Source of the DNA: Elusimicrobiota bacterium
GTDB lineage: Bacteria > Elusimicrobiota > Elusimicrobia > UBA1565 > UBA9628
Length of the DNA: 64,000 nucleotides
Direction of reading: 5' to 3'
Assembly (NCBI GenBank): GCA_016218545.1
Contig: JACRDQ010000038.1
Coordinates: 66,986-130,985 of the forward strand
The notes beneath the pieces were generated by a model. The model was not told where the DNA came from. It searched no databases and was given only the letters and a program-made list of their open reading frames with translations. This document shows, one piece after another, positions 76-25,713 of this stretch. How positions within the stretch are numbered: the first letter of the stretch is position 1; the number at the start of each line of letters is the position of its first letter. The translations under genes were made by a program, and so were the position numbers.

Positions 76-2670
76 GTGGAGGGGGCCGCGGTCTCCGCGG
101 CGCCCCGGACGGGCTTGCAGCCCGCCCAGCTCAAGAAGATCGACCCGGCCACGCGCCCCTATTCCCCGTGGCGGCTCTCGACCTTCCTCCAGGACCCCGA
201 GAAGTACGCCATGCTCTTCATCTTCGGCGCGGACGACCAGGCTTTCCGCGAGGTGCGGGGCTACGAGCTCCTCGTGGGCGACGCCGTGCACCAGGCCTTC
301 GAATCCGTCTACAAGAGGGTCCAGGCCGGGACCCCGGGCAAGGACATCAAGCTTGACGAGGCCCTCGCGGTCTACGCCAAGGTCTTCGACGAAGGGCACA
401 AGTCCGGCGGCTACACCGAGCGCTCCGGCTGGAAGGCTTCGGAGTACAAGCGCCGCGGCACGGACTACATCAAGACCCGCTTCGGGCGGCTGGCTCCGTT
501 CGAGAGCCAGGGCAAGGTCCTCGCCATCGAGGAGCGCGTGTTCTGGACCATGAAGGACCCGGCCACGGGCAAGTCCTACGACTTCAAGGGCCGCATCGAC
601 CGCCTCATGCTCAAGGGCGACACGGTCTACATCCGCGACTGGAAGACCCACTTCGCGCCCCCGACCCTGACCCAGCTCGAGCGCGACGACTTCCAGCTGG
701 GGCTCTACGCCTTGGGCCTGGTCCGCACCCGGCCGGACCTGGTGAAGGGCCGCAAGCTCGTCATCGCCTGGGACTTCAAGGAGTTCACCCAGGAGATCGT
801 GGTGGACGAGGCCTATCTGGCCCGGACCGAGGCCCAGGTCCTCGACATCCTGCGCCGCATCGAGGTCTTCACCGCCCGCGTCGAGGCGGAGAAGCCCGAG
901 TGGTTGAAGCGCCTCGGCCCCGACTCCAACCCGGCGGGCGCGGCCCGCGCCCGCGCCGCGGTCGACGAGCTGGGGAAGATGCGCGATGGGATGGACGCCA
1001 AGGCCTCGGAGCTGCGCGCCTTGCGGCGCGAGTACAAGAACAAAGAGGAGGGCGTGACGCGCTACGCTCTGAGGATGAAGCAGTCCCAGGTCAAGGGCAA
1101 GCGTTATACCCTCGACGTCGCCAAGACCAAGGAAGAGGCGGCCCTGCCGACCAAGACCGACGACCTCGAAGGCTATGAGGAGGTCGTGCGCATCTTAAAG
1201 GAAGGCGGGGCCTGGGACAGCCTCTCCAGTCTGGACGCGGCCTCGGTCCGGAAGGCCGTGGAAGCCCTGGGCGGCGACGACCACCAGGCTTTCGAGAAGC
1301 TCAAGGCCCTCATCAAGTCCGGGCATCTCAACGAGGTCGAGACCTATCTCAAGAACGCCAAGGCCTCGGGCGGCGGCGTGGTCAGGCCCAAGATCGAGCG
1401 CGACGCGATCGCTCCCGATTCCCAGCCCGGCGTGCTCTCCCCGACCCAGCTCGACGTCTTCCTTCGGGACGAGACCGAGTACGCCGAGCGCTACATCGTG
1501 CGCATGCGCGAGGAAGGCCCCAAGGCCATGGGCACCCTGGCCGGCTCCGTCATCCACGGGACCATGGAGCAGCTCTACGTCTGGATCAAGGGCGGCCGCG
1601 AAGTCGCGGACATCCACTACAACGACCTCATGAAGTTCTTCGACGCCCGGTGGGAAGAGGAGAAGGCCCAGGGCGCGTACGTCCCGGACAAGGGCGTCTC
1701 CGAGGCCGATTACATCAAGGGCTCCAAGGAGTATGTGAAGGCCAAGTGGGACAAGCTCTACCCCTTCGACCTGGGCCGGCCCGTGTTCCTCGAGAAGAGG
1801 ATGTTCTTCACCCTCACGGACCCCAAGACCGGCAGGACCTACAAGTTCCAGGGCATCCCGGACCGTGTCATGATCGAGGGCGACACCGTGGTCATCCGCG
1901 ACTGGAAGTCCCATTATAAGGAGCCGACCGCGGCAGAGGTCAAGGCCAAGGACTACCAGCTCGGCCTCTACGTCCTGGCCCTCAGGCAGCTCTACCCGGA
2001 CCTCATGAAAGGCCGCAAGGCGCGGCTCGTCTGGGACTTCAAGAGCAAGGAGGTCGTCATCGACGTGGACGACCAGTACCTCCAGGGCCTGGAGAAGAGG
2101 CTCTTCGCGGTCCTGCGCAGGATGGACTCCTTCAAGGCCAAGGTCGAGTCCCAGCGCGAGAAATGGGAGGAGGAGCTTGGCCTCGTCACCGTGCCCAGGA
2201 CCAAGAAAGCCGCGGCCGACGCCGTAGACGGCCTGGGCAGGCTGGCGGACAAGATCGTGGCCCTTGAGGACGCTCTGGCCCCCCTCAAGGAGAAGGAGGC
2301 CGCCCTGGAGACCGAGGTCGCCGCCTTCAGCAGCCAGACCGGCTGGGTCCGGGTCCACGGTTCCGAGTACAGTTCCAAGCTGGTCAAGCGCGGCAATGTC
2401 GCGGTCCCGACCAAGGGACGCGAGCGCCAGGCCTACGACCAGGTGACCGCCATCCTCAAGGCCGCCGGGGTCTGGGAAAAGTACTCGAGCCTGGACTACT
2501 CGGCGCTCAGGAAGGCCCTGGCCGACCCCGATCACCCTGACCGGGCCGTGCTCGAGAAGCTCGAGCCGCTCCTCAAGGACATCGACAACGTCAAGGTCAA
2601 GCTCAGCAAGACCCTGAAGAAGGACAAGCCCAGGAAGAAGAAAGCATCAGGCAGGAAAGCCTCGAAGTAG
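76..2670 (+). CDS. Tandem-duplicated PD-(D/E)XK (RecB-like) nuclease-domain protein, about 864 aa. The reading frame is open back to base 1, so the gene may be 5'-partial.
   Basis: Two repeated modules each carry a GDAVHQAFE-like motif, an acidic residue, then hhDWKT/S (YIRDWKTH, VIRDWKSH) and QLGLY. This matches the RecB-family PD-(D/E)XK motifs II-III and QhxxY. Each module is followed by a coiled-coil linker and a repeated 'ILKxxGxWxxxSSLD..RKA' segment. The C-terminus is Lys-rich. No stop codon in frame between position 1 and 76. Confidence 0.55.
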   Translation: MEGAAVSAAPRTGLQPAQLKKIDPATRPYSPWRLSTFLQDPEKYAMLFIFGADDQAFREVRGYELLVGDAVHQAFESVYKRVQAGTPGKDIKLDEALAVYAKVFDEGHKSGGYTERSGWKASEYKRRGTDYIKTRFGRLAPFESQGKVLAIEERVFWTMKDPATGKSYDFKGRIDRLMLKGDTVYIRDWKTHFAPPTLTQLERDDFQLGLYALGLVRTRPDLVKGRKLVIAWDFKEFTQEIVVDEAYLARTEAQVLDILRRIEVFTARVEAEKPEWLKRLGPDSNPAGAARARAAVDELGKMRDGMDAKASELRALRREYKNKEEGVTRYALRMKQSQVKGKRYTLDVAKTKEEAALPTKTDDLEGYEEVVRILKEGGAWDSLSSLDAASVRKAVEALGGDDHQAFEKLKALIKSGHLNEVETYLKNAKASGGGVVRPKIERDAIAPDSQPGVLSPTQLDVFLRDETEYAERYIVRMREEGPKAMGTLAGSVIHGTMEQLYVWIKGGREVADIHYNDLMKFFDARWEEEKAQGAYVPDKGVSEADYIKGSKEYVKAKWDKLYPFDLGRPVFLEKRMFFTLTDPKTGRTYKFQGIPDRVMIEGDTVVIRDWKSHYKEPTAAEVKAKDYQLGLYVLALRQLYPDLMKGRKARLVWDFKSKEVVIDVDDQYLQGLEKRLFAVLRRMDSFKAKVESQREKWEEELGLVTVPRTKKAAADAVDGLGRLADKIVALEDALAPLKEKEAALETEVAAFSSQTGWVRVHGSEYSSKLVKRGNVAVPTKGRERQAYDQVTAILKAAGVWEKYSSLDYSALRKALADPDHPDRAVLEKLEPLLKDIDNVKVKLSKTLKKDKPRKKKASGRKASK

Positions 2671-2721: not shown

Positions 2722-2801
2722 ATGCTGCGTTTCGGGTGGGCAAGGCTGTTTCATGACTCTCGTCATACTTTCCCCTGGCGTTTGTGGTCTACTATAAAGG
2801 A

Positions 2802-3707
2802 ATGGTGCCAAGACCCTGGTCCCTGCTCCTCATCCTCGGCCTTGCCGGGTGCGGGAAGGATGAGGCCATTCCCACGGTCATCCTCTCGGACAAGGCTGTA
2901 GTGGAGAAGCCCGCCTTGCCTAGGGGAGAGGAACTGCGCTTCTCCGCGCCGGCCAGGCTCTCTCCCAAGAAGGCTTACAGCGAATACCAGGCGCTCTTCA
3001 GTCATGTGGCCAGGAGCCTGGGCAAGCGCGGTCACACCGTGACCCGCGAGACCTACGCGGAGAGCCTTTCCCTGCTGGAGCACCGCGAGATCGACGTTGC
3101 CTATCTCTGCGCCGCCAGTTATGTGATCGGCAAGTCCAAGTTCGGGGCCGAGATCCTTGCCGTGCCCGTGGTCAAAGGCAGGGCAGCGGACGCCTCCTGC
3201 CTCATCGTCCATAAGGAAAGTCCGGTCATGCGCTGGGAAGACCTCAAAGGGAGGTCCTTCGCGTTCACCGACCCCGACTCCAACGCAGGGTGGCTCGTGC
3301 CCGTGGACTTGCTCGCCTCCAAGGGCGTCTCCCCCCAGGTCTTCTTTTCCAAGACCATCTACACGCGCGCCCATGACAACTCGGTCAAGGCCGTGGCGAG
3401 CGGCCTGGTGGACGCCGCGGCCATTCATTGCAACGTGCTCGACGAGGTCCTAGAGGAGGCTCCATCGGCGGCGTCCCGGGTGCGGGTGGTCTGGAAGTCG
3501 GCGCATTTCGCCATGCCGCCCATCGCGGTCCATCCCGGGCTCGACCCTGCCTTGAAGGCGCGCCTGCGCGAGGCCTTCCTCGCCCTGCATCGGGCCCCGG
3601 AAGGCGCCAGGCTCCTGCGCAAGGCCGGAATCGAGCGCTTCACGGTGATAGACGACTCCGCCTACGAACCGATCCGCAGGATGCGCGCTGCCGTGGACCG
3701 GAGATGA
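2802..3707 (+). CDS. PhnD-like (phosphonate-type) ABC substrate-binding lipoprotein, with no cognate permease or ATPase nearby; a likely sensory co-receptor
   Basis: Start at the second Met. It is preceded by an aaagga RBS and gives the lipoprotein signal MVPRPWSLLLILGLAGCG. The body resembles the PhnD/SsuA periplasmic-binding fold (VAYLCAASYV, FAFTDPDSNAGW, RVVWKS). The stop overlaps the start of the downstream kinase gene. Confidence 0.65.
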   Translation: MVPRPWSLLLILGLAGCGKDEAIPTVILSDKAVVEKPALPRGEELRFSAPARLSPKKAYSEYQALFSHVARSLGKRGHTVTRETYAESLSLLEHREIDVAYLCAASYVIGKSKFGAEILAVPVVKGRAADASCLIVHKESPVMRWEDLKGRSFAFTDPDSNAGWLVPVDLLASKGVSPQVFFSKTIYTRAHDNSVKAVASGLVDAAAIHCNVLDEVLEEAPSAASRVRVVWKSAHFAMPPIAVHPGLDPALKARLREAFLALHRAPEGARLLRKAGIERFTVIDDSAYEPIRRMRAAVDRR

Positions 3708-5131
3708 TGGCTGCGCGGCGCGCAGGGGGGCTGAGCATCAGGGGCAGGCTCCTCCTGGGGTCCGCCGGGGTCATCCTGCTCTTCGGAGGTCTTGTGCTGG
3801 CAGGGCTCTACCGGGCTATGCTCGGCTTGTTCATGGAGGAGCTGGTCCGCAGGGGGTACGCCATCGCGGACACCCTGCTGGAGCCGTCCCAGAATCTCCT
3901 CCTGACGGAGGACTCCTTCGCGCTCCAGCAGGTCCTCCAGTCCTCGCTCAGCCGCCACCATGACGTGCGCTACGCGTTCGTGGCTGATGCCGAAGGCAGG
4001 GTCGTGTCTCATACGTTCATGGGAGGCTTCCCCAAAGGGCTTGACCGGGCGGTGCTGCTGGACCCCGGAGAGGCATCCCGCTCCCGTCCCGTGCGCACCG
4101 AGGAGGGCTTGATCTACGACGTGGGCGTGCCCTTGCAGGGCCTGGGGAGCATCCATGTGGGGATGCGGTCCGCCGAGGTCGCCCGCCGCGTCGTCAGGGA
4201 CACCATGGGCTGGGGCAGCACCGCCGCAGGGGCGCTCATGCTGGGCGCGGTGGTCATCTGGTGGCTGACCGGCCGCCTGGCCGCGCGCCTGAAGGATCTG
4301 GTGGGAGCGGCGGAGGAGGTGGGCGCGGGCAGGCTCGACGCGGTCGTGCAGGACCGCGGGGAGGACGAGGTGGGGCGCCTGGCCAGGGCCTTCAATGCCA
4401 TGACGCGGGACCTCAAGGAATACCAGGCCCGGGCCCTGAGGGCCGGGAAGCTCGCCGCCATCGGCGAGCTCGCCTCTTGCGTGGCCCATGAGATCAACAA
4501 CCCCCTCAATACGATGGGGGTTTGCGCCCAGGCCCTTCTTGAGCGGGCATCGAGCCCGGAGCTGCGCGCGTCCGCCGAGTTCTCCGACTTCCCGGAATAT
4601 CTCAAGACCATCGACAGCGAGGTGAGCCGCTGCAAAAGGATCACGTCCGAGCTCCTGCTCTTCGGACATCCGCGCGAGCCCCGCCTGGAGCCCGTGGACC
4701 TCAATGAGCTCGTCTCGGAGTCCCTCGGACTGCTCGAGCACAGGCTCCGGGGCGCGGAGGCGGCGGTGGAGACGGTCCTGGCCCCGGGGTTGCCGAGGCT
4801 CCATGCCGACTCGGACCAGCTCAAGCAGGTCCTCCTCAATCTCGTGGGAAACGCCCTCGATCACATCAGACCCGGCGGTCAGGTCCGGATCGCGACGGCC
4901 AAGCATGGCCGGGAGCTGGCCTTGAGCGTCACCGACGACGGGCCGGGCATCCCGCCCGAGCATCGCGACAAGGTCTTCGACCTCTTCTTCACCACGAAGA
5001 AGGCCGGCGCGGGCTCGGGGCTCGGCTTGGCGATCTGCCAGAGGATCGTCGACAGCCACGGGGGCCGCATCGCGGTCGAGAGCCGGCCGGGCCGGGGCGC
5101 TGTCTTCACCGTTTCCCTTCCCATCCGCTGA
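3704..5131 (+). CDS. Sensor histidine kinase with TM, HAMP, HisKA and HATPase domains
   Basis: The ATG at 3704 overlaps the upstream stop codon (gagATGAtgg). There is a TM region and a HAMP-like segment. The H-box is ELASCVAHEINNPLN. The ATPase N, G1 and G2 boxes are present (NLVGNALDHI, DDGPGIP, GSGLGLAICQ). The longer ORF given in the track (from 3428) is an out-of-context upstream extension. Confidence 0.8.
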   Translation: MMAARRAGGLSIRGRLLLGSAGVILLFGGLVLAGLYRAMLGLFMEELVRRGYAIADTLLEPSQNLLLTEDSFALQQVLQSSLSRHHDVRYAFVADAEGRVVSHTFMGGFPKGLDRAVLLDPGEASRSRPVRTEEGLIYDVGVPLQGLGSIHVGMRSAEVARRVVRDTMGWGSTAAGALMLGAVVIWWLTGRLAARLKDLVGAAEEVGAGRLDAVVQDRGEDEVGRLARAFNAMTRDLKEYQARALRAGKLAAIGELASCVAHEINNPLNTMGVCAQALLERASSPELRASAEFSDFPEYLKTIDSEVSRCKRITSELLLFGHPREPRLEPVDLNELVSESLGLLEHRLRGAEAAVETVLAPGLPRLHADSDQLKQVLLNLVGNALDHIRPGGQVRIATAKHGRELALSVTDDGPGIPPEHRDKVFDLFFTTKKAGAGSGLGLAICQRIVDSHGGRIAVESRPGRGAVFTVSLPIR

Positions 5132-5262
5132 GGGGCGTTCCGCCCAAGTCGGATTCAAGTCATCTTCTTTCCTTGAGGGCCGTCATTCTTATCATCCATG
5201 GCGTTTGGGACAATGTGCTCAATCGGAGCGGCGCCGGGAAGGCCGCTGGGATGGGAGGAGCG

Positions 5263-6165
5263 ATGAACGTGATGTCGACGCGCATGAGGATGTCAGGCTC
5301 GATCGTCATTTTGGGATTGGCGCTGGGGGTCGTGCCGGTGGCCTTCGGCGCGGAGGCTCCGGCTGCCGCCGGGACCGAGAAGTGCCAGTCATGCCACGCG
5401 GACGTCGCCAAGGCGTTCGGGTCGACCAAGCACGGCAAGGCCGCCTACTACGGCGTGCAGGGAGCCGGCTGCGTGTCGTGCCACGGCGAAAGCGAGAAGC
5501 ACGCGGGCTCCGGGGATAAGGCGGACGCCTTCAACCCCGCGAAGGCCGACCCCGAGAAGGTCAACGAGACCTGCCTGGAGTGCCACAGCAAGACCAAGGC
5601 CCTGATGTTCTGGAATGGGAGCGCCCACTCGAACAACGAGCTCGGCTGCGTCGCCTGCCATTCGGTCCACGGCGGGAAGGACAAGCTCCTCAAGGCCGCG
5701 GACGACAAGGCCGTGTGCTTCACCTGCCACAAGAACGTCCGGGCCGCGATGTTCGCCCGCTCCAAGCATCCGATGCGGGATTCCTCCAATCCCAAGGGCG
5801 AGGGCAAGATGACGTGCGCCTCCTGCCACAACCCGCACGGCTCCGAGTCCGAGAAGCTCATCAGCGCGAAGTCCGTCAACGACAAGTGCTATGAGTGCCA
5901 CACGGAGAAGAAGGCCCCGCTCCTCTGGGAGCACTCCCCGGTCAAGGAGGACTGCCTCACCTGCCACGCCGCTCACGGCGCGGCCAATGACAAGCTCCTC
6001 ACGGTCCGCCCTCCCAGGCTCTGCCAGTCGTGCCACATGCAGGGGCGCCACCAGAGCGGCACCTTGGACGTCAACTCCGTGTACGCGATCGGCAGGTCCT
6101 GCTTGAACTGCCATCCGATGGTGCACGGCTCCAACAGCCCGTCGGGCCCCGTCCTTCAGCGGTGA
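5263..6165 (+). CDS. Periplasmic decaheme c-type cytochrome of the MtrA/MtoA/PioA family
   Basis: Ten CXXCH motifs are present: CQSCH, CVSCH, CLECH, CVACH, CFTCH, CASCH, CYECH, CLTCH, CQSCH and CLNCH. The mature part is about 300 aa, which is MtrA/MtoA size. An N-terminal signal peptide is present (MNVMSTRMRMSGSIVILGLALGVVPVAFGA). The start could equally be 5248. Confidence 0.85.
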   Translation: MNVMSTRMRMSGSIVILGLALGVVPVAFGAEAPAAAGTEKCQSCHADVAKAFGSTKHGKAAYYGVQGAGCVSCHGESEKHAGSGDKADAFNPAKADPEKVNETCLECHSKTKALMFWNGSAHSNNELGCVACHSVHGGKDKLLKAADDKAVCFTCHKNVRAAMFARSKHPMRDSSNPKGEGKMTCASCHNPHGSESEKLISAKSVNDKCYECHTEKKAPLLWEHSPVKEDCLTCHAAHGAANDKLLTVRPPRLCQSCHMQGRHQSGTLDVNSVYAIGRSCLNCHPMVHGSNSPSGPVLQR

Positions 6166-6217
6166 CCGGGGTCGACGCTGAAAGATCATGACCTATAGAA
6201 AAGGAAGGGTGGATACC

Positions 6218-8656
6218 ATGGAGGCTACAATGAGAGGTAAGGGCATGAGCCGCAAGACATTCCTTGGGGCCCTGCTGGCCGTCGCGCTCGCCACGGGTGC
6301 CCAGGCGGCCAATGACGTCATGGACGGCAAGCTCACGGTCGCAGTCGACGCCCAGGTGGGCGTCCAGGCACGGCAGACCGACGACTCCGTCGAGAAGTTC
6401 AACGAGTACCGCGACGTCCAGACGGGCTTCTTCCTCGACGACTTCCGCTTCTCCGCCGATGGGACCGATAGCCCGTACTATGTCGGGTTCAGGGCAAGGC
6501 ATGCGCTCCGGGCCGACGAGACCTATAAGCTCGGTTTCGGCCGGCACGGGCAATACGGCGTGCGCTTCTCCTATGACAGCCTGCCGCACAACTTCGCGCA
6601 AGGCAAGCTGCTCTACAGCGGCGTGGGGACCGGGGACCTGGTCATCGCGGACCAGCTCCAGGCGGACCTGCAGGCTCTCGAGCAGACCGAGAACGACCGC
6701 GACGCCGCGGCCAACAAGGTCAATCCCCTCGTGGACGTCACGGGTGAGGACGCCCTGACCAAGGGCATCGTGGACGGCCTCTACTCGACCAGGGACTTCA
6801 CGGTCCTCAAGCTCAAGAGGGAGAAGGCCAGCCTGGCCTTCGACTACGACGTCGCCAACGACGTCAAGACCTGGATGAAGGTCTCCCACGAGAAGCGCGA
6901 CGGGGCCAGGACCATCAATGCCGGCTCCTACGAGCGGTGGGATCAGGGCGCTGCCGGCTTGACCCACCTCAAGGACCTCTTCACCATCTCGGGCGCGGAG
7001 CTGGCTGAGCCGGTGGACTACAGGACCATCGTGTTCGCGGTCGGAGCCGGCGTCTATAAGAAGGCTTGGCTCGCGGACGCGGAATACTCGTTCACGGACT
7101 TCAACAACGACTACTCGGCCTTGCGCTGGGACAATGCCCTGAGGAGCACGGACGAGATCGGCAGGACCGCGGCGGCGGGCGGGGCCACGCTCGGCAACAA
7201 CTACAACAGGGGCCGGTTCGTCCGGGGCCAGCTCGGCCTTCCGCCGGACAGCCAGTCCCACCAGGTGAACTTCAACGGCTCGGTGGAGCTTCCCCTGCAC
7301 AGCAGGTTCGCGGCCAGCCTGGGTTACGGACTGATCGAGCAGAACCAGGCCTTCAACCCGTTCTCGCTCAACACGGCGATCTCTCCCAGGGCCGGCCTGG
7401 ACGTGACCAACCCGGCCGCGCTCCCGGAGAGCGGTCTCCACGGCGCGGTCACGACCCTGACCCAGAGCTACGTGCTCTCGAGCAAGCCGATCGAGAGCCT
7501 TTCTCTCGCGGCGAAGTACCGCTTCTACAAGTACAAGAACGACACCAGGAGGATCTCGCTGCCCGGCTACGCGGCCTGGGGAGAGAGCGATTGGCGCACC
7601 GTCAGGAGCGACGCGGGCACGGCCGTGCAGAACGACACGCTCGGGTTCACGAAGCACACTGTGGACTTCTCGGCCGACTACAAGGTCGCCAAGCCCCTGA
7701 CCGTGGGCGTGGAGACCGGCGTCGAGTACTGGGATCGCGACGAGGTTCGGGTGGACAAGACCAAGGAGTTCAGCGTGGGCGGCAGCTTCATCTACAGGCC
7801 CGCGGACTTCGCGAGCTTCAAGGCCGCCTACAAGTTCGCCAAGCGCACGGACACGGGCTATATCGAGGGAGCGGTCAAGAAGAACCCGGAGGCCGCCGGC
7901 TTGCGGAACTTCGACTGGGCCGAGCGCACGCGCAACAAGGCCGACGGCAGGCTCCTGCTCTACCCGTCCGACTCCGTTTCCGTGGGCTTCTCCGGCCAGT
8001 TCCAGCGCGACCAGTTCGCCAAGGACACCCGGTTCGGGCTCAAGTCGGTCGAGGCGTCGAACGGGTCCGTGGACGTCTCCTACAGCCCGTCCGAGACGCT
8101 GAACATGTTCGCGAGCTATACCCGGGAGCACCGGCGGAGCAAGATCAAGAATGGGGCCAAGGACGATGCCTTCAACGCGGCCGGGCCTCTAGACGACAGC
8201 TTCACGACCAGCAACTTCAATCCGTACAACGAGTGGAACAGCAACATCTCCGAGGACGTGGACACCCTGGGGTTCGGGGCCAACGTGGCGGTCATCCCGG
8301 AGAAGCTCGAGCTCGACGCGAGCTACAACTTCTCCCACTCGAGGACCGACACCTATACATATAATCCGAACGGCCAGGCGAAGCTCGGCAACGGCGAGGC
8401 CAAGGACTGGCCGCTCGTCAAGAACAGCCTGCACGAGATCAAGGCCGACCTGGGGTACAAGTTCACCAAGAGCATCAAGGCAGGGACTCGCTACATGTAC
8501 GAGGGGTTCCACCTGACGGACTTCGCTTGGGAGAACCTCCAGCCTTACATGCCCGGCTACAGCGCGGAGAACTCGACCCGCTATCTCTTCGCGGACGCGA
8601 CCTACCGGAATTACGACTCGCACGTCGGGATGGTGTACCTGAACTATTCGTTCTGA
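6218..8656 (+). CDS. MtrB/PioB/MtoB-family outer-membrane beta-barrel, about 810 aa. It would be the porin partner of the upstream decaheme cytochrome.
   Basis: The gene follows the decaheme gene after about 50 nt. Signal peptide ...FLGALLAVALATGAQA. The body is Tyr/Gly/Asp-rich with alternating amphipathic strands and ends in ...YLNYSF, the C-terminal Phe typical of outer-membrane proteins. The size matches PioB/MtoB. Start is ambiguous between 6188, 6218 and 6230. Confidence 0.6.
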   Translation: MEATMRGKGMSRKTFLGALLAVALATGAQAANDVMDGKLTVAVDAQVGVQARQTDDSVEKFNEYRDVQTGFFLDDFRFSADGTDSPYYVGFRARHALRADETYKLGFGRHGQYGVRFSYDSLPHNFAQGKLLYSGVGTGDLVIADQLQADLQALEQTENDRDAAANKVNPLVDVTGEDALTKGIVDGLYSTRDFTVLKLKREKASLAFDYDVANDVKTWMKVSHEKRDGARTINAGSYERWDQGAAGLTHLKDLFTISGAELAEPVDYRTIVFAVGAGVYKKAWLADAEYSFTDFNNDYSALRWDNALRSTDEIGRTAAAGGATLGNNYNRGRFVRGQLGLPPDSQSHQVNFNGSVELPLHSRFAASLGYGLIEQNQAFNPFSLNTAISPRAGLDVTNPAALPESGLHGAVTTLTQSYVLSSKPIESLSLAAKYRFYKYKNDTRRISLPGYAAWGESDWRTVRSDAGTAVQNDTLGFTKHTVDFSADYKVAKPLTVGVETGVEYWDRDEVRVDKTKEFSVGGSFIYRPADFASFKAAYKFAKRTDTGYIEGAVKKNPEAAGLRNFDWAERTRNKADGRLLLYPSDSVSVGFSGQFQRDQFAKDTRFGLKSVEASNGSVDVSYSPSETLNMFASYTREHRRSKIKNGAKDDAFNAAGPLDDSFTTSNFNPYNEWNSNISEDVDTLGFGANVAVIPEKLELDASYNFSHSRTDTYTYNPNGQAKLGNGEAKDWPLVKNSLHEIKADLGYKFTKSIKAGTRYMYEGFHLTDFAWENLQPYMPGYSAENSTRYLFADATYRNYDSHVGMVYLNYSF

Positions 8657-8826
8657 GCCCGCCCAGGCGGGCAGATTCGCCGGTGCGGCCTGGGGCTCGC
8701 GAGAGCGGGCCCCAGGCTCCGGGGTCCCCCAGGAGCGCCCGTCTTCCGAATCCGGAAGAGCCGGCTCCTCTCTTTTCCAGCCGCGGCCGGACTCGGGATT
8801 TGCCGTCCGGCCTCTGAACGGGTATA

Positions 8827-10191
8827 GTGTCCATGGATGAAGAGCGCGGGTGGTACGGCGTGAGGAAGCTCTCGGTCCTCGTCGTCGACGACGAGGAGGG
8901 CTTCTGCCGCTGCCTCGGCAAGGAGTTCGGCCGCAAGGGCTACGCTGTCTCAGCCGCGCATGACGGCAAGGCCGCCTTGGAGGCCCTCGCGAAGGCCCAG
9001 GCGGACGTCATGCTGCTCGACGTCGTCCTTCCCCGGTTGAGCGGCACGGAGGTCCTCAAGAGGGTCCGGCGGGACCATCCGCGCACCCAGGTCATCATGC
9101 TGACCGGAAACGCCACGGTCGAGACCGCCATCGAGTCCATGAAGCAGGGCGCCTTCGACTACCTGACCAAGCCCGTGAACCTCGCGGAGCTCTGCCTGGT
9201 GGTGGAGAGGGCCTTCGAGGCGACGCGGGTCCGCGCGGAGAACGAGGCCTTGCGCTGGGAGCTGGGCCGGAGGACGAGGTTCGACGAGTTCGTGGGCAAG
9301 CACGCCTCCGTCGTGGAGATCAGGAAGATGGTCTCCAGGGTCGCGGAGACCGACTCTCCGGTCCTCATCTGCGGCGAGACCGGCACGGGCAAGGAGCTGG
9401 TGGCCCGGATGCTCCATCACGAGAGCAGGCGGTCCAAGGCCCGCTTCCTCGCGGTCAACTGCGCCGCGTTCCAGGAGAACCTGCTCGAGACCGAGCTTTT
9501 CGGCCACGAGAAGGGCGCGTTCACGGACGCCGGGGCGCGCAAGCCCGGCCTGGTGGAGCTGGCGGACGGCGGGACCCTTTTCCTCGATGAGATCGGGAAC
9601 ATGAGCCCCGCGGTCCAGGCCAAGGTCCTGCGCCTGCTCGACGCCGGGGAGTACCGCAGGGTGGGCGGCACCGACGACCTGAAGAGCGCCTGCCGCGTGG
9701 TCAGCGCCACCAACCAGGACCTCGGCAAGGCCATCAAGGACGGCCGTTTCCGGGAGGACCTCTACTACAGGCTCAACGTCGTGATGATCAAGACCCCGCC
9801 CCTGCGCGAGCGCAGGGAGGACGTGCCCCTGCTCGTGGAGCACTTCCTCGACAAGGTGCATGCCTTGCAGACCCGGGGCCGCAAGACCATGAGCCGTCCT
9901 GCCCTGGACCTGATCCTGGGCCATCCCTGGCCGGGGAACGTCCGGGAGCTCGAGAACGCGGTGGAGCGGGCCGTCATCCTGTCCGAGGGCTCGGTCATCG
10001 AGCCCTCGGCCCTGTGCCTGCCGTGCCTGGAGGCGGGGCGCAGCGTGGGCGACGCTCTGGCCGATGTCGAGAAAGCCCACATCCTCGCTGTGCTCGGCCG
10101 CACCGGGGGGAACAAGAGCCAGGCGGCGGCCATCCTCAAGGTCGACGTCAAGACGGTCTACAACAAGCTCAAGGAATTCGGGATCGCGTAG
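8827..10191 (+). CDS. Sigma54-dependent response regulator of the NtrC family (REC, AAA+ and Fis-type HTH domains)
   Basis: A receiver domain is present (VLVVDDEEGF..., D in LLDVVLP). The Walker A motif is GETGTGKE. GAFTGA-type and ESELFGHEKGAFTDA segments are present. The C-terminal HTH is AAILKVDVKTVYNKLKEFGI. Confidence 0.85.
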   Translation: MSMDEERGWYGVRKLSVLVVDDEEGFCRCLGKEFGRKGYAVSAAHDGKAALEALAKAQADVMLLDVVLPRLSGTEVLKRVRRDHPRTQVIMLTGNATVETAIESMKQGAFDYLTKPVNLAELCLVVERAFEATRVRAENEALRWELGRRTRFDEFVGKHASVVEIRKMVSRVAETDSPVLICGETGTGKELVARMLHHESRRSKARFLAVNCAAFQENLLETELFGHEKGAFTDAGARKPGLVELADGGTLFLDEIGNMSPAVQAKVLRLLDAGEYRRVGGTDDLKSACRVVSATNQDLGKAIKDGRFREDLYYRLNVVMIKTPPLRERREDVPLLVEHFLDKVHALQTRGRKTMSRPALDLILGHPWPGNVRELENAVERAVILSEGSVIEPSALCLPCLEAGRSVGDALADVEKAHILAVLGRTGGNKSQAAAILKVDVKTVYNKLKEFGIA

Positions 10192-10223
10192 GGAATATTT
10201 CCACTGTCCGTGGAAATATTCCC
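10191..10223. promoter_or_regulatory. Perfect 14-bp inverted repeat GGGAATATTTCCAC-N5-GTGGAAATATTCCC. It is a candidate enhancer (UAS) for the adjacent sigma54 activator and/or a terminator.
   Basis: Read directly. It begins at the stop codon of the NtrC-like gene. It lies about 100-130 bp upstream of the candidate -24/-12 promoter at 10323-10338. Confidence 0.45.
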
Positions 10224-10322
10224 GGCCGCTTGGGCGCGCCAGCGCCGGGCCTCCCCTTCGTTCCGCCGGTTTCTCGTCGGAGACCGGGCCAGCCCGGTCT
10301 CCCCGGTCTTCGGTCATCCCAT

Positions 10323-10338
10323 TGGCAGGATTGATGCC
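10323..10338 (+). promoter_or_regulatory. Candidate sigma54 (-24/-12) promoter TGGCAG-gattg-ATGC upstream of the FNR-like gene
   Basis: The sequence ttGGcaggattgaTGCca has GG and GC spaced exactly as in the TGGCAC-N5-TTGC consensus. A GGAGG RBS lies at 10355-10359 and the ATG is at 10371. Confidence 0.35.
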
Positions 10339-10370: not shown

Positions 10371-11138
10371 ATGGGATACGACAGGACTGCCGCGCCTAAA
10401 TTCGTCTGCCCTCAGCCCGCTTCAGCCGGCTGCGCGGCCTGCACCTGCGAGAAGCGCTGTTTCCTCGGCCTTCTGGACCCGGACCAGCGCCGACGCTTCA
10501 GGGCCGAGAGGATCCACCGGCTCTACCGGTCCAGGCAGATCATCTTCAGCCCAGGGGACGCGCCGCAGGGCCTCATGATCCTCTGCCGCGGCTCGGTCCG
10601 GATCGCCTTCACCACGGAGCAGGGCCGCCAGGTCACGGTGGGCTACGCTTCCTGCGGGGAACTGCTGGGCGAGGCGGCCTATGTGGCAGGCAAGCCGCAC
10701 GCCTTCACGGCCGAGGCTCTGGGGGACTCCTTCGTGAGCTTCCTTCCCAAGGCCCTCTCGGACGAGCTCCTGGCGGAATCTCCCAAGCTGGCCCGCCGCG
10801 TGGCCGAGGACTCCTGCGGAAGGTACTGCGCGACCGCCAAGCTCGCGTCCAACTGGATCCTCAAGTCCGCCGACGCCAAGCTGGCCGAGTTCCTCCTTTC
10901 GGATGAGGCTGGAGCGGTCCCGGACATGCCCTGCAAGCCCCATCAGCGCCTGAGCCGGAAAAGCCTTTCCGAGCACGTGGGACTTGCGCCTGAGACCGTG
11001 ATCCGGAGGCTCAGCGACTTCAAGAGGCGCGGCCTGGTCCGGTTCGCGGGCAAGGCCGTGGAGATCGTTGACCGCGGAGCGCTCGCTGCCGTGGCCTCGG
11101 ACCACGGCCAGGCCGCCGCCTCGGCGATCTGGACCTAG
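10371..11138 (+). CDS. CRP/FNR-family transcription factor with an N-terminal Cys cluster (FNR-like redox sensor)
   Basis: The N-terminus is CPQPASAGCAACTCEKRC, with five Cys in a C-x7-C-x2-C-x-C-x3-C arrangement. A cNMP-binding beta-roll follows (IIFSPGDAPQGLMILCRGSVRI). The C-terminal HTH is SRKSLSEHVGLAPETVIRRLSDF. Confidence 0.8.
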   Translation: MGYDRTAAPKFVCPQPASAGCAACTCEKRCFLGLLDPDQRRRFRAERIHRLYRSRQIIFSPGDAPQGLMILCRGSVRIAFTTEQGRQVTVGYASCGELLGEAAYVAGKPHAFTAEALGDSFVSFLPKALSDELLAESPKLARRVAEDSCGRYCATAKLASNWILKSADAKLAEFLLSDEAGAVPDMPCKPHQRLSRKSLSEHVGLAPETVIRRLSDFKRRGLVRFAGKAVEIVDRGALAAVASDHGQAAASAIWT

Positions 11139-11373: not shown

Positions 11374-14300
11374 CTATCGGGAGGCTCCCACGGGGACGGC
11401 GGGGCTCGCGGATTCCAGCGGCGAGCCTGAATCGTTGTGAGGGGGCGCCCGGGCCGCGATGCCGCGGGGCTTGGGCTTGCGCTTGGGGGGCGCCGGCTTC
11501 CAGCCCTGGAGCCAGAGGCGCTGGAAGTAGACGGTGTAGCCCGCCAGGGTGGCGTCGTCGTCGAAGAAGTTGGCGTTCTCGAAGGAGTTGTTCTCGGCGT
11601 TGGGGGAGTAGTTGAAGGAGCCGGTCTCGAGGAACTTCCCGTCGACCATCATGAGCTTGTTGTGCATCTTCTCGAACATGGGGTCGCCGTCTTCCCCGCG
11701 CGGGCCCTGGATGAGGCGGGTGTCGAAGCCGTGCCAGGCGAACCAGTCGTCGATCTTGGAGACCTTGGACTGGGAGTAGTCCATCACGATGCGGATGGCG
11801 ACCTCGGGCCGGTTGTTCTTGACCTCGAGGAGGGCGTCCGCGATGGCCTGGGAATAGAAGCTGAACATCGCGATCTCGATGGAGACCTTGGCGGCCTTGA
11901 TGGCCCGGATGAGGGCGGCCTCGATCGCGCCCTGCGGGGAGAAGAGCTGGCGCGGGAAGGCCTCATTGCCCAGCTTGATGGGCTGGTCCGTGTCCTGGGG
12001 CGGGGGAGGGTACTCGGGCCTGCGCAAGTGCGTGCCCGAGGCCTCGCCGGCGTCCTGGGCCTCCTGCATGGACCGCAGGGTCCGGGCCAGGATCTCGTCG
12101 AGCTTGGCCATGTCGATGTCCTCGGCCAGGCCGCGCATGTACTGGAAATACTTCAGGTGGGCCGCCACCCGGCCCGCGTCCTTGGTGAAGATGAAGTTCT
12201 CGAAGTGGCTCTGCTCGGCCACGTCGGTCAGGTTGTAGGAGCCGAAGCCGACGAGCCCGTCGTCGACCACCATGATCTTGTTGTGCATGACCCCGCTGCG
12301 CTTGCCGCGCAGGATCTTGACGTCGAATCCCTCCTTGATGAGGGCCACGACCTGGGGCTTGGGCTTCCTGGGCTGGTCCTCGTGGTTGATGCCCGAGGTG
12401 TAGACATGGTTGCGGTCGAGCACGAGCTCGACCTTGACCCCGCGGGTCTTGGCCCGGCGCAGGGCCTCGAGGATGGACTCGGAGGTGAACTCGTAGAGGG
12501 CCAGGCGGATGGTCTTCTTGGCCGCGTCGATGGCCTTGATGATGTTGGGGGCGATGGGGTGGTCCGGCAGGAGCGCGTAGGAGGGCAGTTGGGCGCCGTT
12601 GAAATCCACGATGGGCGCGGCCGGGAGGTCCGGGAGGTCCGGCGCCGGCGGGGTGGGCTTGGGCGGCGGAGGGTTGAGGATGTCGTGCAGGAGCTCCTCA
12701 TCCGTGGGGAGGACGGGCAGCTGCGCGGGCTTGGCGAACGCCTGCGCGATCTTGAACATGTGCTCGAAGGCGAAGGAGAAGGCCGCGGCGTCGGTCTTGT
12801 CGTCGAGGAAGTGCGCGTTCTCGTAGTTGTCCACCGAGGCGCGCTTCGTCCAGTTGGCCGAGCCGGTCTCGACGATCCTGCCGTCGAGGATCATGAACTT
12901 GTGGTGCGTCTTCTCCGCCATGGGGAAGTCGCTGTCCGGGTTGGGGCCGGCCAGGGTCTTGACCGCGATGCCCTTGCTCGCCAGCCACTGGACGAACGGG
13001 CCGAAGTACTCCGAGGTGGACTGGCTCTCGTCCATCACCATGCGGACCTTCACCCCGCGCTCATGGGCGCGGACCAGGGCGTCCGTGATCCTGCGCGAGC
13101 GCAGGGCGAACATGGCCACGTCCACGGACTTCTTGGCCGCGTCCAAGCCCTTGACCACCGCGTCCTCGAACGCGGTGCCGTCGGGCATGAAGAGGATGGC
13201 GGGCAGGGCCGTGCCGTTCAAGTCCACGGTCCCGGCCTGGGTCCCGGCCGGGGGCTTGGCCGGGGTCTGCGGCCAGGAGTGCTCCCTGGCCTGGGCGAAG
13301 GGCACGCTGATGCCCAGGAGGTAGTCGTAGTACTCTTTGAGGGCCCAGACCCGGCTCTTCTGCGTGGTGAAGAGGGCGTTCTCGTAGTGGCTGTTCTCTG
13401 AGGTGAAGGAGTAGTTGTAGGAGCCGAACTGCGCGAGCCTGCCGTCGAAGATGGCGAACTTGTTGTGGTTGATGCCGTAGGCCGTCACCCCGCGCAGGAC
13501 GCGCAGGTCGTAGCCGTCGCGGATGAGGCTCCAGAGCTCGTTGGAGCGGCGCATGCGGTAGGCCGCGTCCGGGTCGTTCTTGGGGAAGACGTTGGAGTAA
13601 TCGACGATGAGTTGGATCTTGACCCCGCGGCGCTTGGCCCGGGCCAGGGCGTCCATGACGGCCCGGTTCTTGAACTCGTAGAGGGCCAGGCGGATGGTCT
13701 TGCGGGAGGCCTTGATGGCCTTGACGATCTCGTCTTCGACCGGGACATTGGGCCGCAGGGCCACGGAGGGGAACTCTTTGTTGTTGAAGGTGACCGTGCG
13801 GACCGGATAGTCCGCGCCGCCGCCGTCGTCCGAGTTGGAGGCAGGCTCCTCGGCCTTGGCCCTGCCCCTGCCCGCGGTCTCGTAGTCGAGCCCGGCGGAC
13901 TCGTAGTCGAGCCCTGCGGCCTCGTAGTCGATGGGGCTGGCGGCCAGGTCCGCGCCGGCGACCGCGCCTGCGGCCGCGCTCTCGGCGCCGAGCTTGAAAT
14001 CGAAGCTGCGGTCCGCGTACTCCTTCTGGCCCTGCAGGTCCGCGGCCTTGGGCTCGGCGAAGGGGACCTCGGCCGAGAGGCGCTCGAAGGCGCCGCGTCC
14101 CGCCTCCTCGGAGCCGGCCGCTTCCTGGGTCTTGACCGGGGTCTTGGAGACCGACAGGACGGAGGACGGCAGCGAGGTCTCGGGAGTCGCGAAGCTTCGG
14201 CCTGCCTCCGGTGCCGCGGGGAGGGCGGGCTGGGCCAGGACGGGCAGGCCCGGCTGCGCGGTGTCGGAGAGAGCGGGAGCGGCCACGCTGTTGACGCTCG

Positions 14301-14493
14301 GGGCGAGGAAGCCCGAGCCGCCGGTGAGCCGGTCGAGCCGCAGGTCCATGGCCGGGGCCGACATGGACACCGGGACCGCGGGGATGGCGTTGTTGCCGGA
14401 CGGCAGGCTCACGGCTCGGATCTGCTGGGCCAGCCCCGACGAGGGCGTGGTCCAGAGGATGATGGCGAGCGCCCAGAGCGCTGCGCGAGGCAT
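11374..14493 (-). CDS. Secreted PLD-superfamily protein with four HKD motifs (two complete catalytic units), 1039 aa
   Basis: Signal peptide MPRAALWALAIILWTTPSSGLAQQ, then a Pro/Ala/Leu-rich low-complexity leader. Four HxK(x4)D(x6)GSxN motifs are present: HNKFAIFDG..GSYNYS, HHKFMILDG..GSANWT, HNKIMVVDD..GSYNLT and HNKLMMVDG..GSFNYS. Confidence 0.8.
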   Translation of the reverse strand: MPRAALWALAIILWTTPSSGLAQQIRAVSLPSGNNAIPAVPVSMSAPAMDLRLDRLTGGSGFLAPSVNSVAAPALSDTAQPGLPVLAQPALPAAPEAGRSFATPETSLPSSVLSVSKTPVKTQEAAGSEEAGRGAFERLSAEVPFAEPKAADLQGQKEYADRSFDFKLGAESAAAGAVAGADLAASPIDYEAAGLDYESAGLDYETAGRGRAKAEEPASNSDDGGGADYPVRTVTFNNKEFPSVALRPNVPVEDEIVKAIKASRKTIRLALYEFKNRAVMDALARAKRRGVKIQLIVDYSNVFPKNDPDAAYRMRRSNELWSLIRDGYDLRVLRGVTAYGINHNKFAIFDGRLAQFGSYNYSFTSENSHYENALFTTQKSRVWALKEYYDYLLGISVPFAQAREHSWPQTPAKPPAGTQAGTVDLNGTALPAILFMPDGTAFEDAVVKGLDAAKKSVDVAMFALRSRRITDALVRAHERGVKVRMVMDESQSTSEYFGPFVQWLASKGIAVKTLAGPNPDSDFPMAEKTHHKFMILDGRIVETGSANWTKRASVDNYENAHFLDDKTDAAAFSFAFEHMFKIAQAFAKPAQLPVLPTDEELLHDILNPPPPKPTPPAPDLPDLPAAPIVDFNGAQLPSYALLPDHPIAPNIIKAIDAAKKTIRLALYEFTSESILEALRRAKTRGVKVELVLDRNHVYTSGINHEDQPRKPKPQVVALIKEGFDVKILRGKRSGVMHNKIMVVDDGLVGFGSYNLTDVAEQSHFENFIFTKDAGRVAAHLKYFQYMRGLAEDIDMAKLDEILARTLRSMQEAQDAGEASGTHLRRPEYPPPPQDTDQPIKLGNEAFPRQLFSPQGAIEAALIRAIKAAKVSIEIAMFSFYSQAIADALLEVKNNRPEVAIRIVMDYSQSKVSKIDDWFAWHGFDTRLIQGPRGEDGDPMFEKMHNKLMMVDGKFLETGSFNYSPNAENNSFENANFFDDDATLAGYTVYFQRLWLQGWKPAPPKRKPKPRGIAARAPPHNDSGSPLESASPAVPVGASR

Positions 14494-18913: not shown

Positions 18914-18920
18914 GTTCAGG

Positions 18921-22526: not shown

Positions 22527-22574
22527 GCCTATATTGTATAGGACGACCCATGGAAGGGGGTTGGGCCTTCGGGG

Positions 22575-22595
22575 TTGTTCGGAGCGGTTATTGGA
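22575..22595 (-). terminator. Candidate terminator hairpin GGACCCAG-gcgct-CTGGGTCC after the gene for the lipoprotein with HEAT repeats
   Basis: An 8-bp perfect stem lies about 25 nt downstream of the stop at 22621. No clear U-tract. Confidence 0.3.
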
Positions 22596-22620
22596 CCCAG
22601 GCGCTCTGGGTCCAGGCGGC

Positions 22621-25600: not shown

Positions 25601-25713
25601 TTGGCCGCGGCCGAGAGCGCTGCGGTGACCGGGCGGGGCTTGGGCCGGGCGGTCTCGCCGCAGAGGGCGAGGGAGGGGAGGAGGAGCGTCAGGCAGAGAG
25701 CGGCCCGGCGCAT
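22621..25713 (-). CDS. Large lipoprotein of about 1030 aa with a central Gly-rich repeat region (beta-helix-like) and C-terminal HEAT/PBS-lyase-type repeats
   Basis: The internal Met at 25713 gives a lipobox LLLPSLALCGE. The longer ORF from 26022 is an Arg-rich extension that overlaps tolB and is not used. Repeats of the form xGxGxFG / YAQGSG are present. The C-terminus shows ...PEVRGAGCAAMFA..., ...PSVRAAAAYAAAQL (HEAT-like). The gene starts 11 nt after the tolB stop. Confidence 0.55.
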   Translation of the reverse strand: MRRAALCLTLLLPSLALCGETARPKPRPVTAALSAAAKAAEASASDLDLRPSRWDTAMALPEAEGLLKDPLSLPASAGRWKEGLRRSEDACGLLGVGRQVLGAPAGTLAREFRHSMAPESLGLAPDLRVAIARILWDMDIARAAVLEAADSLTGPERLAALQEVKAAVTSENGPRSEPAVYAAMARFRLSQLLEAGSFLLCAVSGSHLPALRKAAARSSVAEKRWKLPFGEALLVGPGERTFTAGELKGVALLIHLGRKSVYQGPVAAAGEGEVKVVIDLAEDVTVQDPSGGPTGGSGIFGVGLLFLPNPAGAKKLSGGDFSLGSGLFGVGGLTIEGKANVLRGGRFSQAAGAFGAGVLWSKGEDASFEADLSAQGYGFTQGAGVFRHQGARADLQCGLRYPDPREAQAALSMCQGAAYGRRAFAGGGAGLAHVATEDGSIVANYFGQGSGYWHGIGALFVRGDRNRLKARRYAQGSGIHAAVGVLSVAGSSNALVNWGVGPAFGWDYGAGFWELHGDDNTARADWGTGRGDANGHGLAAVTGDRNKLLLPEFGTGFHKRAAPGYGLASVEGKDNRLGLSALPAETRAHGLALSPWGAVVSRSGLILDPKLTLASADWPAIDHAAAVEKERAELSRMFEAALQKTGAERVAGLLHVTSSFSLESGVPRMALAELFRTPDQDLAHLEAALSAERFDEYLWLRVLLAGFGPQVLDWAKGSFDKTGGTLRSLILQSARYAKAQDALPMLEAALKDEDWRVRREAAGALGHLFSQEQGDEPGRLRFFEVAVSSDAAEELIKRMGWKRAADVMSALSLAGQLTADERGLLVHRFPGPNEPLPKEALTLFLDLLEAQPERSSGLKAELESARRLRDRAAELLKVVSADPDPDVADAGLASLGAVGRPEDSSFLTSHLKAKDAKRRDAAASGLGRMGPGALQAVASALSSPERRVRSAACKASALSWDPETVALLARCLKDRAPEVRGAGCAAMFAVQGALSESKKRFRGVLSKLSTTDPSPSVRAAAAYAAAQLPK

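Follow-up and report, generated by a model that had tools for sequence, protein, structure and literature searches.

A stretch of 64,000 nucleotides (nt) of an Elusimicrobia genome (assembly GCA_016218545.1, contig JACRDQ010000038.1, positions 66,986 to 130,985), called the window below, carries two adjacent genes, mtrA and mtrB, which very probably (roughly 85%) encode a two-part porin–cytochrome conduit of the MtrAB/MtoAB kind. The contig is 284,154 bp long and belongs to a metagenome-assembled genome (MAG) from groundwater. The functional names of both proteins are already public through automatic annotation by the Prokaryotic Genome Annotation Pipeline (PGAP): MtrA is MBI5624667.1, a "DmsE family decaheme c-type cytochrome", and MtrB is MBI5624668.1, an "MtrB/PioB family decaheme-associated outer membrane protein". 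The pair and the spacer that follows it are arranged as listed here.

5263 to 6165, plus strand: mtrA, decahaem c-type cytochrome of the MtrA/MtoA/DmsE family, the putative wire of the conduit
6245 to 8656 (alternative starts 6188 and 6218), plus strand: mtrB, outer-membrane beta-barrel of the MtrB/PioB family, the putative sheath of the conduit
8657 to 8800, plus strand: spacer after mtrB, GC-rich and hairpin-dense, possibly the end of the transcript

The mtrA gene lies within an open reading frame (ORF) that spans 5173 to 6165 on the plus strand. Translation from the ATG at 5263, about 7 nt downstream of a GGAGGA ribosome-binding site, yields 300 amino acids (aa); the GenBank start is the ATG at 5272, which yields 297 aa. 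An earlier note on this DNA had described a cytochrome of about 300 aa with exactly ten CXXCH motifs, and the count agrees, with motifs at residues 41, 70, 104, 129, 152, 185, 209, 231, 254 and 280. All 20 cysteines of the protein fall inside these motifs, and its 20 histidines are divided equally between the motifs and other positions. The window is GC-rich throughout (63–73%), and among its six-frame, stop-to-stop ORFs of at least 60 aa, mtrA is the sole one with a CXXCH motif. Since no other ORF contains even a single copy, the cluster is not a compositional accident. Judged by eye from the sequence, the N-terminus resembles a Sec signal peptide (AFG/AE).

MtrA is a member of the DmsE/MtrA decahaem family TIGR03508, which it matches with 237.1 bits (cut-off 192.2) over profile positions 1–257 of 258. 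The chance that it is instead an NrfB- or NapC-type paralogue, which the earlier note had singled out for checking, is not borne out, as its scores stay below the cut-offs of the NrfB models (54 bits, cut-off 184, and 44 bits, cut-off 167) and of the NrfH model (35 bits, cut-off 134). Membership of the OmcA/MtrC family was likewise rejected (25 bits, cut-off 209). The top sequence match in the PDB is 6R2Q_A of the Shewanella baltica Mtr complex (E 2.7e-58, 39% identity), and the alignment reaches the last residue of both proteins. To compare the haem ligands, the window MtrA was aligned with 18 homologues encoded in related loci and with the part of S. baltica MtrA that the 6R2Q_A alignment covers. 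Invariant in this comparison are the ten histidines outside the motifs, which are the distal ones, and 27 of the 30 CXXCH motif positions. The remaining three columns, which form the first CXXCH, are absent from a single locus, whose extraction began downstream of them. The ligand set is thus complete: ten CXXCH motifs and ten distal histidines are what the bis-histidine ligation of ten haems requires.

The stop codon of mtrA occupies 6163–6165, and mtrB follows on the same strand after 52 to 79 nt, depending on its start. From 6218, the gap is 52 nt and the product 812 aa, in accordance with the gap of about 50 nt and the barrel of about 810 aa ending in phenylalanine that had been proposed earlier; the C-terminus reads YLNYSF. 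The GenBank start at 6245 gives 803 aa beginning with MSRKTFLGALLAVALATGAQA, and a start at 6188 is also possible. As in MtrA, the N-terminus looks by eye like a Sec signal peptide (AQA/AN). MtrB belongs to the MtrB_PioB family PF11854, with 383.7 bits (cut-off 23) over profile positions 5–635 of 635, and it exceeds the cut-off of TIGR03509 (279.3 bits, cut-off 240.05). Together with the TIGR03508 match of MtrA, these scores uphold the earlier assignment to the MtrAB/MtoAB type of pair.

The sequence of MtrB is only distantly similar to the solved barrel 6R2Q_B (E 5e-7, about 18% identity), but the fold is the same. An AlphaFold model, built from an alignment with 32 homologues, has a mean predicted local distance difference test (pLDDT) score of 83.5 and a predicted template modelling (pTM) score of 0.79. 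Its best Foldseek match in the PDB is 6R2Q_B (E 3.7e-45), with template modelling (TM) scores of 0.88 normalised on the target, over the whole solved MtrB, and 0.72 normalised on the query. Behind it follow 22-strand TonB-dependent receptors; with a TM score of only about 0.4, that fold was rejected. The barrel is predicted to have 26 strands, as in the solved MtrB and within the size that the earlier note had expected. MtrB exceeds the solved chain of 695 aa by about 110 aa, and the model places this surplus in long, partly helical segments that would lie at the outer face, in surface loops. It contains no cysteine at all and hence no N-terminal CXXC, a motif that is missing from all 24 MtrB-family sequences examined. 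In S. oneidensis MtrB, C42 of this motif is needed for Fe(III) reduction (PMC12175506, citing Wee 2014). The spacer behind mtrB (8657–8800) is predicted to fold as RNA with -86.6 kcal/mol (z = -2.7 against shuffles), and a sigma-70-like promoter, TTGCCG-17-TATAGT, lies at 8800–8828 (one match, 0.6 expected).

Both proteins also score on models named after Geobacter sulfurreducens genes. The "GSU2203 family decaheme" model, whose cut-off is 325, gives MtrA 215 bits, and the "GSU2204 family CXXCH-containing (seleno)protein" model gives MtrB 57 bits. Because of these scores, G. sulfurreducens appears to own a divergent MtrAB-like pair whose barrel partner bears a haem motif or selenocysteine.

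By analogy with the solved Shewanella complex, MtrA and MtrB would form a complex that transfers electrons across the outer membrane. The host is a diderm, since genes for TolB and a BamD-like lipoprotein lie within the window. Both proteins would be exported via the Sec pathway, MtrA would acquire ten covalently bound, bis-histidine-ligated haems, and it would then thread through the lumen of the MtrB barrel, read as 26-stranded, in the outer membrane. In this way, the haem chain would link the periplasm with the cell surface as an insulated wire. At the outer mouth of the barrel, the last haem of MtrA would probably be exposed, because no MtrC-type surface cytochrome is encoded nearby. MtrAB on its own has been reported to be capable of moving electrons through a membrane and of sustaining Fe(III) reduction (PMC4245776).

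Two points weigh against this mechanism. The window contains neither an inner-membrane quinol/quinone oxidoreductase nor periplasmic carriers nor cytochrome maturation genes, and Pfam scans of its other predicted genes returned no redox carrier. Moreover, the strand number was read from the DSSP string by a topology-parity argument, in which short turns and both termini were taken as periplasmic, and not from coordinates.

A scan for related loci, with one genome per species and a query alignment of 12 sequences, yielded 21 loci. Eleven of them are labelled Elusimicrobia and come from several studies; the others are labelled as Deltaproteobacteria MAGs, Geobacteraceae/Geobacter, Geotalea toluenoxydans, Nitrospirae, Thermodesulfovibrionia and Verrucomicrobia. 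All related loci that hold both genes have mtrA and mtrB side by side. Among cultured organisms, the nearest carrier of the cytochrome is Geotalea uraniireducens Rf4, a reducer of Fe(III) and U(VI), with 61% identity. Most loci have no further multihaem ORF nearby, the exceptions being L013, L015, L005, L017, L019 and L020.

The contents of some of these loci are worth recording. In L005 (10495–15677), mtrB is followed by a six-haem ORF and a second set of genes for a binding protein, a kinase and a regulator. L013 (2661–9393) holds a second decahaem ORF besides 11- and 13-haem ORFs, of about 600 aa, and L015 (12143–14876) has 9- and 10-haem ORFs after mtrB. A second, divergent mtrAB pair occurs in L020 (12595–15756), and three unannotated genes precede the sensor genes of L029 (3683–6278). 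The extra genes of these five loci may be the surface partners that are missing from the window.

The window pair shares with Shewanella MtrAB the order of cytochrome before barrel, as well as the aligned ligands and the barrel fold described above. Unlike Shewanella MtrCAB, it has no mtrC or omcA within 64 kb, and its barrel differs in length and in the missing cysteines. The earlier statement that no MtrC-like gene is present holds for the whole window: with no second CXXCH ORF, MtrC/OmcA, CymA and MtoD are all absent from it, some 5 kb of the window lying 5' of the pair. A cytochrome wire running through a porin is also the principle of the Geobacter porin–cytochrome systems (Pcc/Ext, OmbB-OmaB-OmcB). 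These are evolutionarily unrelated, however, with smaller barrels of 18–22 predicted strands, other haem counts and a surface cytochrome of their own (PMC4245776). A complex of the Pcc type was rejected for the window, as its proteins match the Mtr families instead.

The direction of electron flow is not readable from the sequence; it is set by redox partners encoded outside the window. Published trees of MtrA and MtrB do not part oxidisers from reducers, and MtrCAB itself can run backwards (PMC8805035). Outward flow appears to be the likelier use, at about even odds, with respiratory or fermentative electrons passing onto soluble or colloidal extracellular acceptors. It is a weakness of this preference that it is drawn solely from the lifestyle of relatives. 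Inward flow comes second, and other roles share the probability left by these two.

Inward flow, possible but clearly less probable than the outward direction, would make the pair a conduit like MtoAB of Sideroxydans lithotrophicus ES-1 or PioAB of Rhodopseudomonas palustris TIE-1, by which an external donor, be it dissolved Fe(II), mineral Fe(II) or another, supplies electrons to periplasmic carriers and the respiratory chain. The length of MtrB, about 800 aa and thus well beyond the solved chain, agrees with it, as PioB also has about 810 aa. The layout agrees as well, with two genes of the same families and no surface cytochrome (PMC6831781). An MtrC-type protein is missing from the window and from the surroundings of mtrAB in most relatives, and mtr clusters linked to Fe(II) oxidation are typically without mtrC (PMC4245776; PMC6831781). 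The absence of the N-terminal CXXC known from S. oneidensis MtrB (PMC12175506, citing Wee 2014) points the same way.

The relatives speak against inward flow. The nearest named carriers (G. uraniireducens, G. toluenoxydans, Geobacter spp. and Thermodesulfovibrionia) reduce metals or sulfate and are not known to oxidise iron, and the window host is not known as an iron oxidiser or a phototroph either. The missing MtrC and the missing CXXC are both traits of the metal reducer G. uraniireducens as well; since its barrel has no cysteine either, the CXXC signature is uninformative outside Gammaproteobacteria. Partners of the MtoD, CymA/ImoA, MtoC and PioC types are all absent from the window. Unlike in MtoAB clusters, no mtoD, cymA or mtoC adjoins the pair, and unlike in PioAB, the window Pfam scans contain no high-potential iron–sulfur protein (HiPIP) of the PioC type. 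The window MtrA also lacks the N-terminal extension of about 200 aa that characterises the PioA-like decahaem cytochromes of photoferrotrophs (PMC6831781), its first CXXCH being at residue 41 of 300.

The conduit genes do not stand alone. They are flanked by genes for a sensor system and a second regulator, in the order binding protein, kinase, mtrA, mtrB, sigma-54 regulator, Crp/Fnr regulator, so that mtrAB sits between kinase and regulator.

2784 to 3707, plus strand: solute-binding lipoprotein of the PhnD family, sensor-type, ArrX/AioX subfamily (PF12974, 212 bits)
3710 to 5131, plus strand: histidine kinase, a membrane sensor with a periplasmic single Cache domain (Pfam sCache_3_2), HAMP, HisKA and HATPase_c
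8827 to 10191, plus strand: sigma-54-dependent response regulator (Pfam Response_reg, Sigma54_activat, AAA_lid_14, HTH_8)
10371 to 11138, plus strand: Crp/Fnr-family regulator (Pfam cNMP_binding, HTH_Crp_2)

The binding-protein gene is annotated from the GTG at 2784, but its likely start is the ATG at 2802, which gives a lipobox LAGC. The stop codon of this gene abuts the start of the kinase gene, which in turn ends 132 nt 5' of mtrA on the same strand. The trio of binding protein, kinase and regulator stands beside mtrAB in the window and in L001/L002, L005, L008, L009, L015, L021, L022, L024, L026, L029 and L030, where L002 is a duplicate of L001; several further loci have kinase and regulator beside mtrAB. 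The unit therefore extends beyond 5263–8656, and the trio occurs in loci labelled Elusimicrobia, Deltaproteobacteria and Geobacteraceae. Judged by gene content and family, mtrAB belongs to a larger conserved unit with what is predicted to be a three-component sensor of the AioXSR/ArrXSR type. The window kinase is 47–50% identical to the mtrAB-adjacent kinases of L001, L008, L009 and L022 (four of the five related loci compared), of which the last three are labelled Elusimicrobia. The window regulator is 56–59% identical to those of L001, L008 and L009, and 45% identical to that of L022.

AioX, ArxX and ArrX are the first parts of systems in which a binding protein works with a Cache-like kinase and a sigma-54 activator to switch on arsenic-respiring enzymes (PMC5908839; PMC8050422). 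The window resembles these AioXSR, ArxXSR and ArrXSR systems in domain architecture, with a putative PF12974 sensor, a Cache-like kinase and a predicted sigma-54 activator beside a respiratory module, and its binding protein keeps the cysteine that sets the AioX/ArrX subfamily apart from PhnD. It differs in that the neighbour is a porin–cytochrome conduit and not a molybdoenzyme. Compared with solved structures, the binding protein is closest to ArrX (E 3e-38, 32% identity) and AioX (3e-32), followed by HtxB (8e-26), PtxB (2e-20) and PhnD (2e-17); the signalling proteins thus outrank the transport proteins. No ABC permease or ATPase gene lies beside it, the neighbours being a nuclease gene and the kinase gene. 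A 2024 survey noted genes for an "ABC transporter substrate-binding protein" within DmsE/MtrB operons of Geobacterales and proposed a role in metal uptake or transport (PMC11492766). The matches of the window protein point to sensing rather than transport as the role of the mtrAB-linked binding proteins. Among the twelve top-ranked papers of a literature search, none names ArrX/AioX-type sensors and MtrAB conduits together.

The binding pocket itself is altered. For Tyr88, Cys106, Tyr131, Ser161, Ser163, His192 and Asp210 of AioX, the window protein has Y, C, D, S, A, H and H. Four of the seven residues are kept, and the three changes are Tyr131 to Asp, Ser163 to Ala and Asp210 to His. The Geobacter and Deltaproteobacteria group has Gly instead of Cys106, which is retained here. 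None of the 14 mtrAB-linked homologues keeps Asp210, so the ligand is probably neither arsenite nor arsenate. The binding protein would then be a sensor of the AioXSR/ArrXSR kind, but probably not an arsenic sensor; another redox-active oxyanion or a metal ion are candidate ligands.

The module has a cultured counterpart in G. uraniireducens Rf4 (L026; CP000698.1, about 4,247,188–4,254,840). It comprises a PF12974 protein, an sCache_3_2/HAMP kinase, a sigma-54 regulator, the cytochrome mentioned above and a barrel of 47% identity. There, in contrast to the window, the order is sensor, kinase, regulator, mtrA, mtrB, and the pocket has Gly for Cys106 and Lys for Asp210. A near-consensus sigma-54 element, TGGCAC-N5-TTGT, lies 235 nt before mtrA (TGGCACACCTCTTGTT, one mismatch).

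Similar promoters precede mtrA in other loci. The -24/-12 element of L004 (TGGCACGACCCTTGCT) is a perfect sigma-54 consensus, and those of L021, L005, L015 and L030 have two mismatches each. L001, L008, L009 and L022 have a weaker sigma-54-like form, TTGGC-N9-TGC(C), with the palindrome GGGAA-WWW-TTCCC on its 5' side. In the other related loci, mtrA is preceded by a promoter-like element alone or by neither. The sequences before mtrA in L001, L008, L009 and L022 served to define the palindrome. With at most one mismatch, it occurs eight times in 141 kb (five sequences), seven of these being in the promoter regions concerned.

In the window, these signals are found at another place, in front of the Crp/Fnr gene, and a weak FNR-type box precedes mtrA.

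10191 to 10224, no strand assigned: inverted repeat, perfect over 14 bp, GGGAATATTTCCAC-N5-GTGGAAATATTCCC, candidate binding site of the sigma-54 regulator
10323 to 10338, plus strand: sigma-54-like -24/-12 element TGGCAGGATTGATGCC, 33 nt before the Crp/Fnr gene
5173 to 5186, plus strand: weak and speculative candidate for an FNR/CRP-type box, TTGAGGGCCGTCAT, located 90 nt before the ATG of mtrA

The palindrome occurs in the window solely at 10191 and 10211, which are the two arms of the 14-bp inverted repeat, and the first base of the repeat is also the final one of the sigma-54 regulator's stop codon. The element TGGCAGGATTGATGCC has the GG-N10-GC spacing and the TTGGC...TGC(C) form seen before mtrA in L001, L008, L009 and L022, with three mismatches to the general consensus. 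The Crp/Fnr protein has a cysteine-rich N-terminus (C13, C21, C24, C26 and C30, as read from the translation) and matches the Fnr and FnrL models weakly, below their cut-offs. Before mtrA, the box TTGAGGGCCGTCAT has one mismatch to TTGA-N6-TCAA, of which there are 13 such matches in 64 kb, so that the chance of one falling in the 132-nt spacer is about 3%.

From these elements, it can be suggested that control in the window may run from the sensor to an FNR-type regulator and from there to mtrAB, although this route is weakly supported. The sigma-54 activator would drive the Crp/Fnr gene through the putative site at 10191–10224 and the sigma-54-like element, and the Crp/Fnr protein, as a possible intermediate regulator, would act on mtrAB through the weak box at 5173–5186. 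A rewired cascade is proposed because the putative activator site and the sigma-54-like promoter precede the Crp/Fnr gene and not mtrA.

Several results count against sensor control of the pair in the window. No sigma-54 promoter was found in the 132-nt spacer before the window mtrA when GG/GC was required and up to three mismatches were allowed, and the best nearby match lies inside the kinase gene. The palindrome is missing before this mtrA too. Consequently, the link between sensor and mtrAB rests here on adjacency and on the other genomes. The FNR-like box amounts to one weak match, and the strict form TTGAT-N4-ATCAA, with up to two mismatches, has no match near the locus. Apart from these points, the predicted RNA structure of the spacer 5' of mtrA is ordinary (z = +1.25).

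It is possible, though less likely than not, that the sensor genes are historical neighbours only and that mtrAB is expressed constitutively, by read-through or under an unrelated regulator. The relocated motif and promoter fit such a loss of control, and so does the gene order: none of the 29 other loci examined places mtrAB between kinase and regulator. The similarities are also mosaic. MtrA (64–67% identity) and MtrB (52–53%) are nearest to proteins labelled Thermodesulfovibrionia, Deltaproteobacteria MAG and Geobacter, whereas the binding protein, kinase and regulator are nearest to those of L001, L008, L009 and L022. Mosaic and gene order together suggest the insertion or replacement of a cassette, and a replaced cassette would fit lost control. 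In a neighbour-joining tree of the barrels, the window MtrB branches alone, outside the main Elusimicrobia group. The groups recovered are Nitrospirota with Deltaproteobacteria MAGs (100%), Geobacter (86%) and the other Elusimicrobia (75%), but the deep nodes have 24–27% support, which allows no firm conclusion on transfer. Against lost control, the adjacency of sensor and mtrAB persists despite rearrangements in loci labelled Elusimicrobia, Deltaproteobacteria and Geobacteraceae, the kinase gene ends just 132 nt from mtrA on the same strand, and the weak FNR-like box would fit an indirect link.

A broader proposal can be made tentatively. The MtrC-less MtrAB pairs of this clade are found in loci labelled Elusimicrobia, Deltaproteobacteria, Geobacteraceae and Nitrospirota, and in all but the last group the sensor genes stand beside them. 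These pairs may be ligand-inducible respiratory modules, in which a sensor with a remodelled pocket detects a periplasmic solute other than arsenite or arsenate, and the conduit provides the outer-membrane step for that substrate. In the window lineage, this circuit may have been rewired via the FNR-type regulator.

A more specialised role, in which a DmsEF-type conduit feeds electrons to a dedicated extracellular terminal reductase and not directly to minerals or solutes, is very improbable. The best NCBIfam model of the cytochrome does carry the DmsE name, and sensors of this type govern the arsenic molybdoenzymes Aio, Arx and Arr (PMC5908839). However, no Pfam scan of the window returned a gene for a molybdopterin oxidoreductase, its Fe–S subunit or another redox enzyme, and no such reductase gene adjoins mtrAB in the related loci examined. 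That the contig is mis-binned and the pair belongs to a Geobacter-like or Nitrospirota organism is hardly credible, even though the nearest relatives of MtrA and MtrB are not Elusimicrobia, since acetate kinase on the same contig is 80–89% identical to proteins of other Elusimicrobia MAGs, the third-codon-position GC content (GC3) of mtrA and mtrB (0.91) is within the range of the neighbouring genes, and at least 11 other Elusimicrobia-labelled MAGs from several studies carry homologues.

Some further features of the window were recorded. The 11-mer TGGCGTTTG[GT]G has exactly two copies in 64 kb, compared with 0.01 expected. Copy one (2776–2786) overlaps the GTG at 2784, about 16 nt before the ATG at 2802, and copy two (5199–5209) precedes the mtrA ATG by 64 nt. 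None of the related loci has the 11-mer conserved at the corresponding positions. Directly 5' of the sensor genes, 76–2670 (plus strand) encodes an 864-aa protein with two tandem PD-(D/E)XK nuclease-like units, the halves being visibly similar.

Downstream, 11374–14493 (minus strand) encodes a secreted protein of 1039 aa, whose long N-terminus is of low complexity and which has four PLD-like (PLDc_2) domains, and 28542–29855 (plus strand) a two-domain PLD protein of 437 aa. Between them, at 15287–26022 (minus strand), lie three consecutive genes for proteins of 1208, 1201 and 1133 aa, which contain a CAAX-protease (Rce1-like) domain, an MFS domain and HEAT repeats, respectively, the remainder having no Pfam match. 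Three tandem paralogous genes for Ser/Thr protein kinases with TPR repeats (819, 783 and 963 aa) occupy 37641–45831 (plus strand); a similar TPR-kinase gene adjoins mtrAB in the Elusimicrobia locus L003. The sole Rfam match in the window is a transfer-messenger RNA (tmRNA) gene at 45943–46294 (plus strand) with the tag ANSQLAWATA, followed by two tandem GGDEF diguanylate cyclase genes at 46352–48945.

Usually, Elusimicrobia are portrayed as fermenters or as having respiratory chains of the conventional kind. In the main comparative study of Elusimicrobia from groundwater, the terms multiheme, iron, extracellular and porin do not occur, and a domain-wide survey of Mtr systems does not mention the phylum (PMC8805035). 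The literature searched yielded no paper connecting Elusimicrobia with MtrAB, with MtoAB or with extracellular electron transfer. The conduit of the window is an additional member of a well-known kind; what is new is the host phylum, the linkage to a sensor, the candidate activator site and the possible rewiring through an FNR-type regulator. Regulation is the more useful point, as adjacency ties this clade of conduits to a kind of sensor that reports arsenic oxyanions. As the module is present in the cultured G. uraniireducens Rf4, both the inducer and the direction of an MtrC-less conduit are directly testable there. If the proposal of ligand-inducible modules is true, the conduit would serve the respiration or the detoxifying reduction or oxidation of a specific substrate rather than act as a generic iron wire, and the rewired circuit of the window would combine a ligand signal with a redox or oxygen signal. 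As this MAG and no fewer than 11 further Elusimicrobia MAGs encode the conduit, the phylum joins the candidate players in subsurface redox cycling of metals and humic substances.

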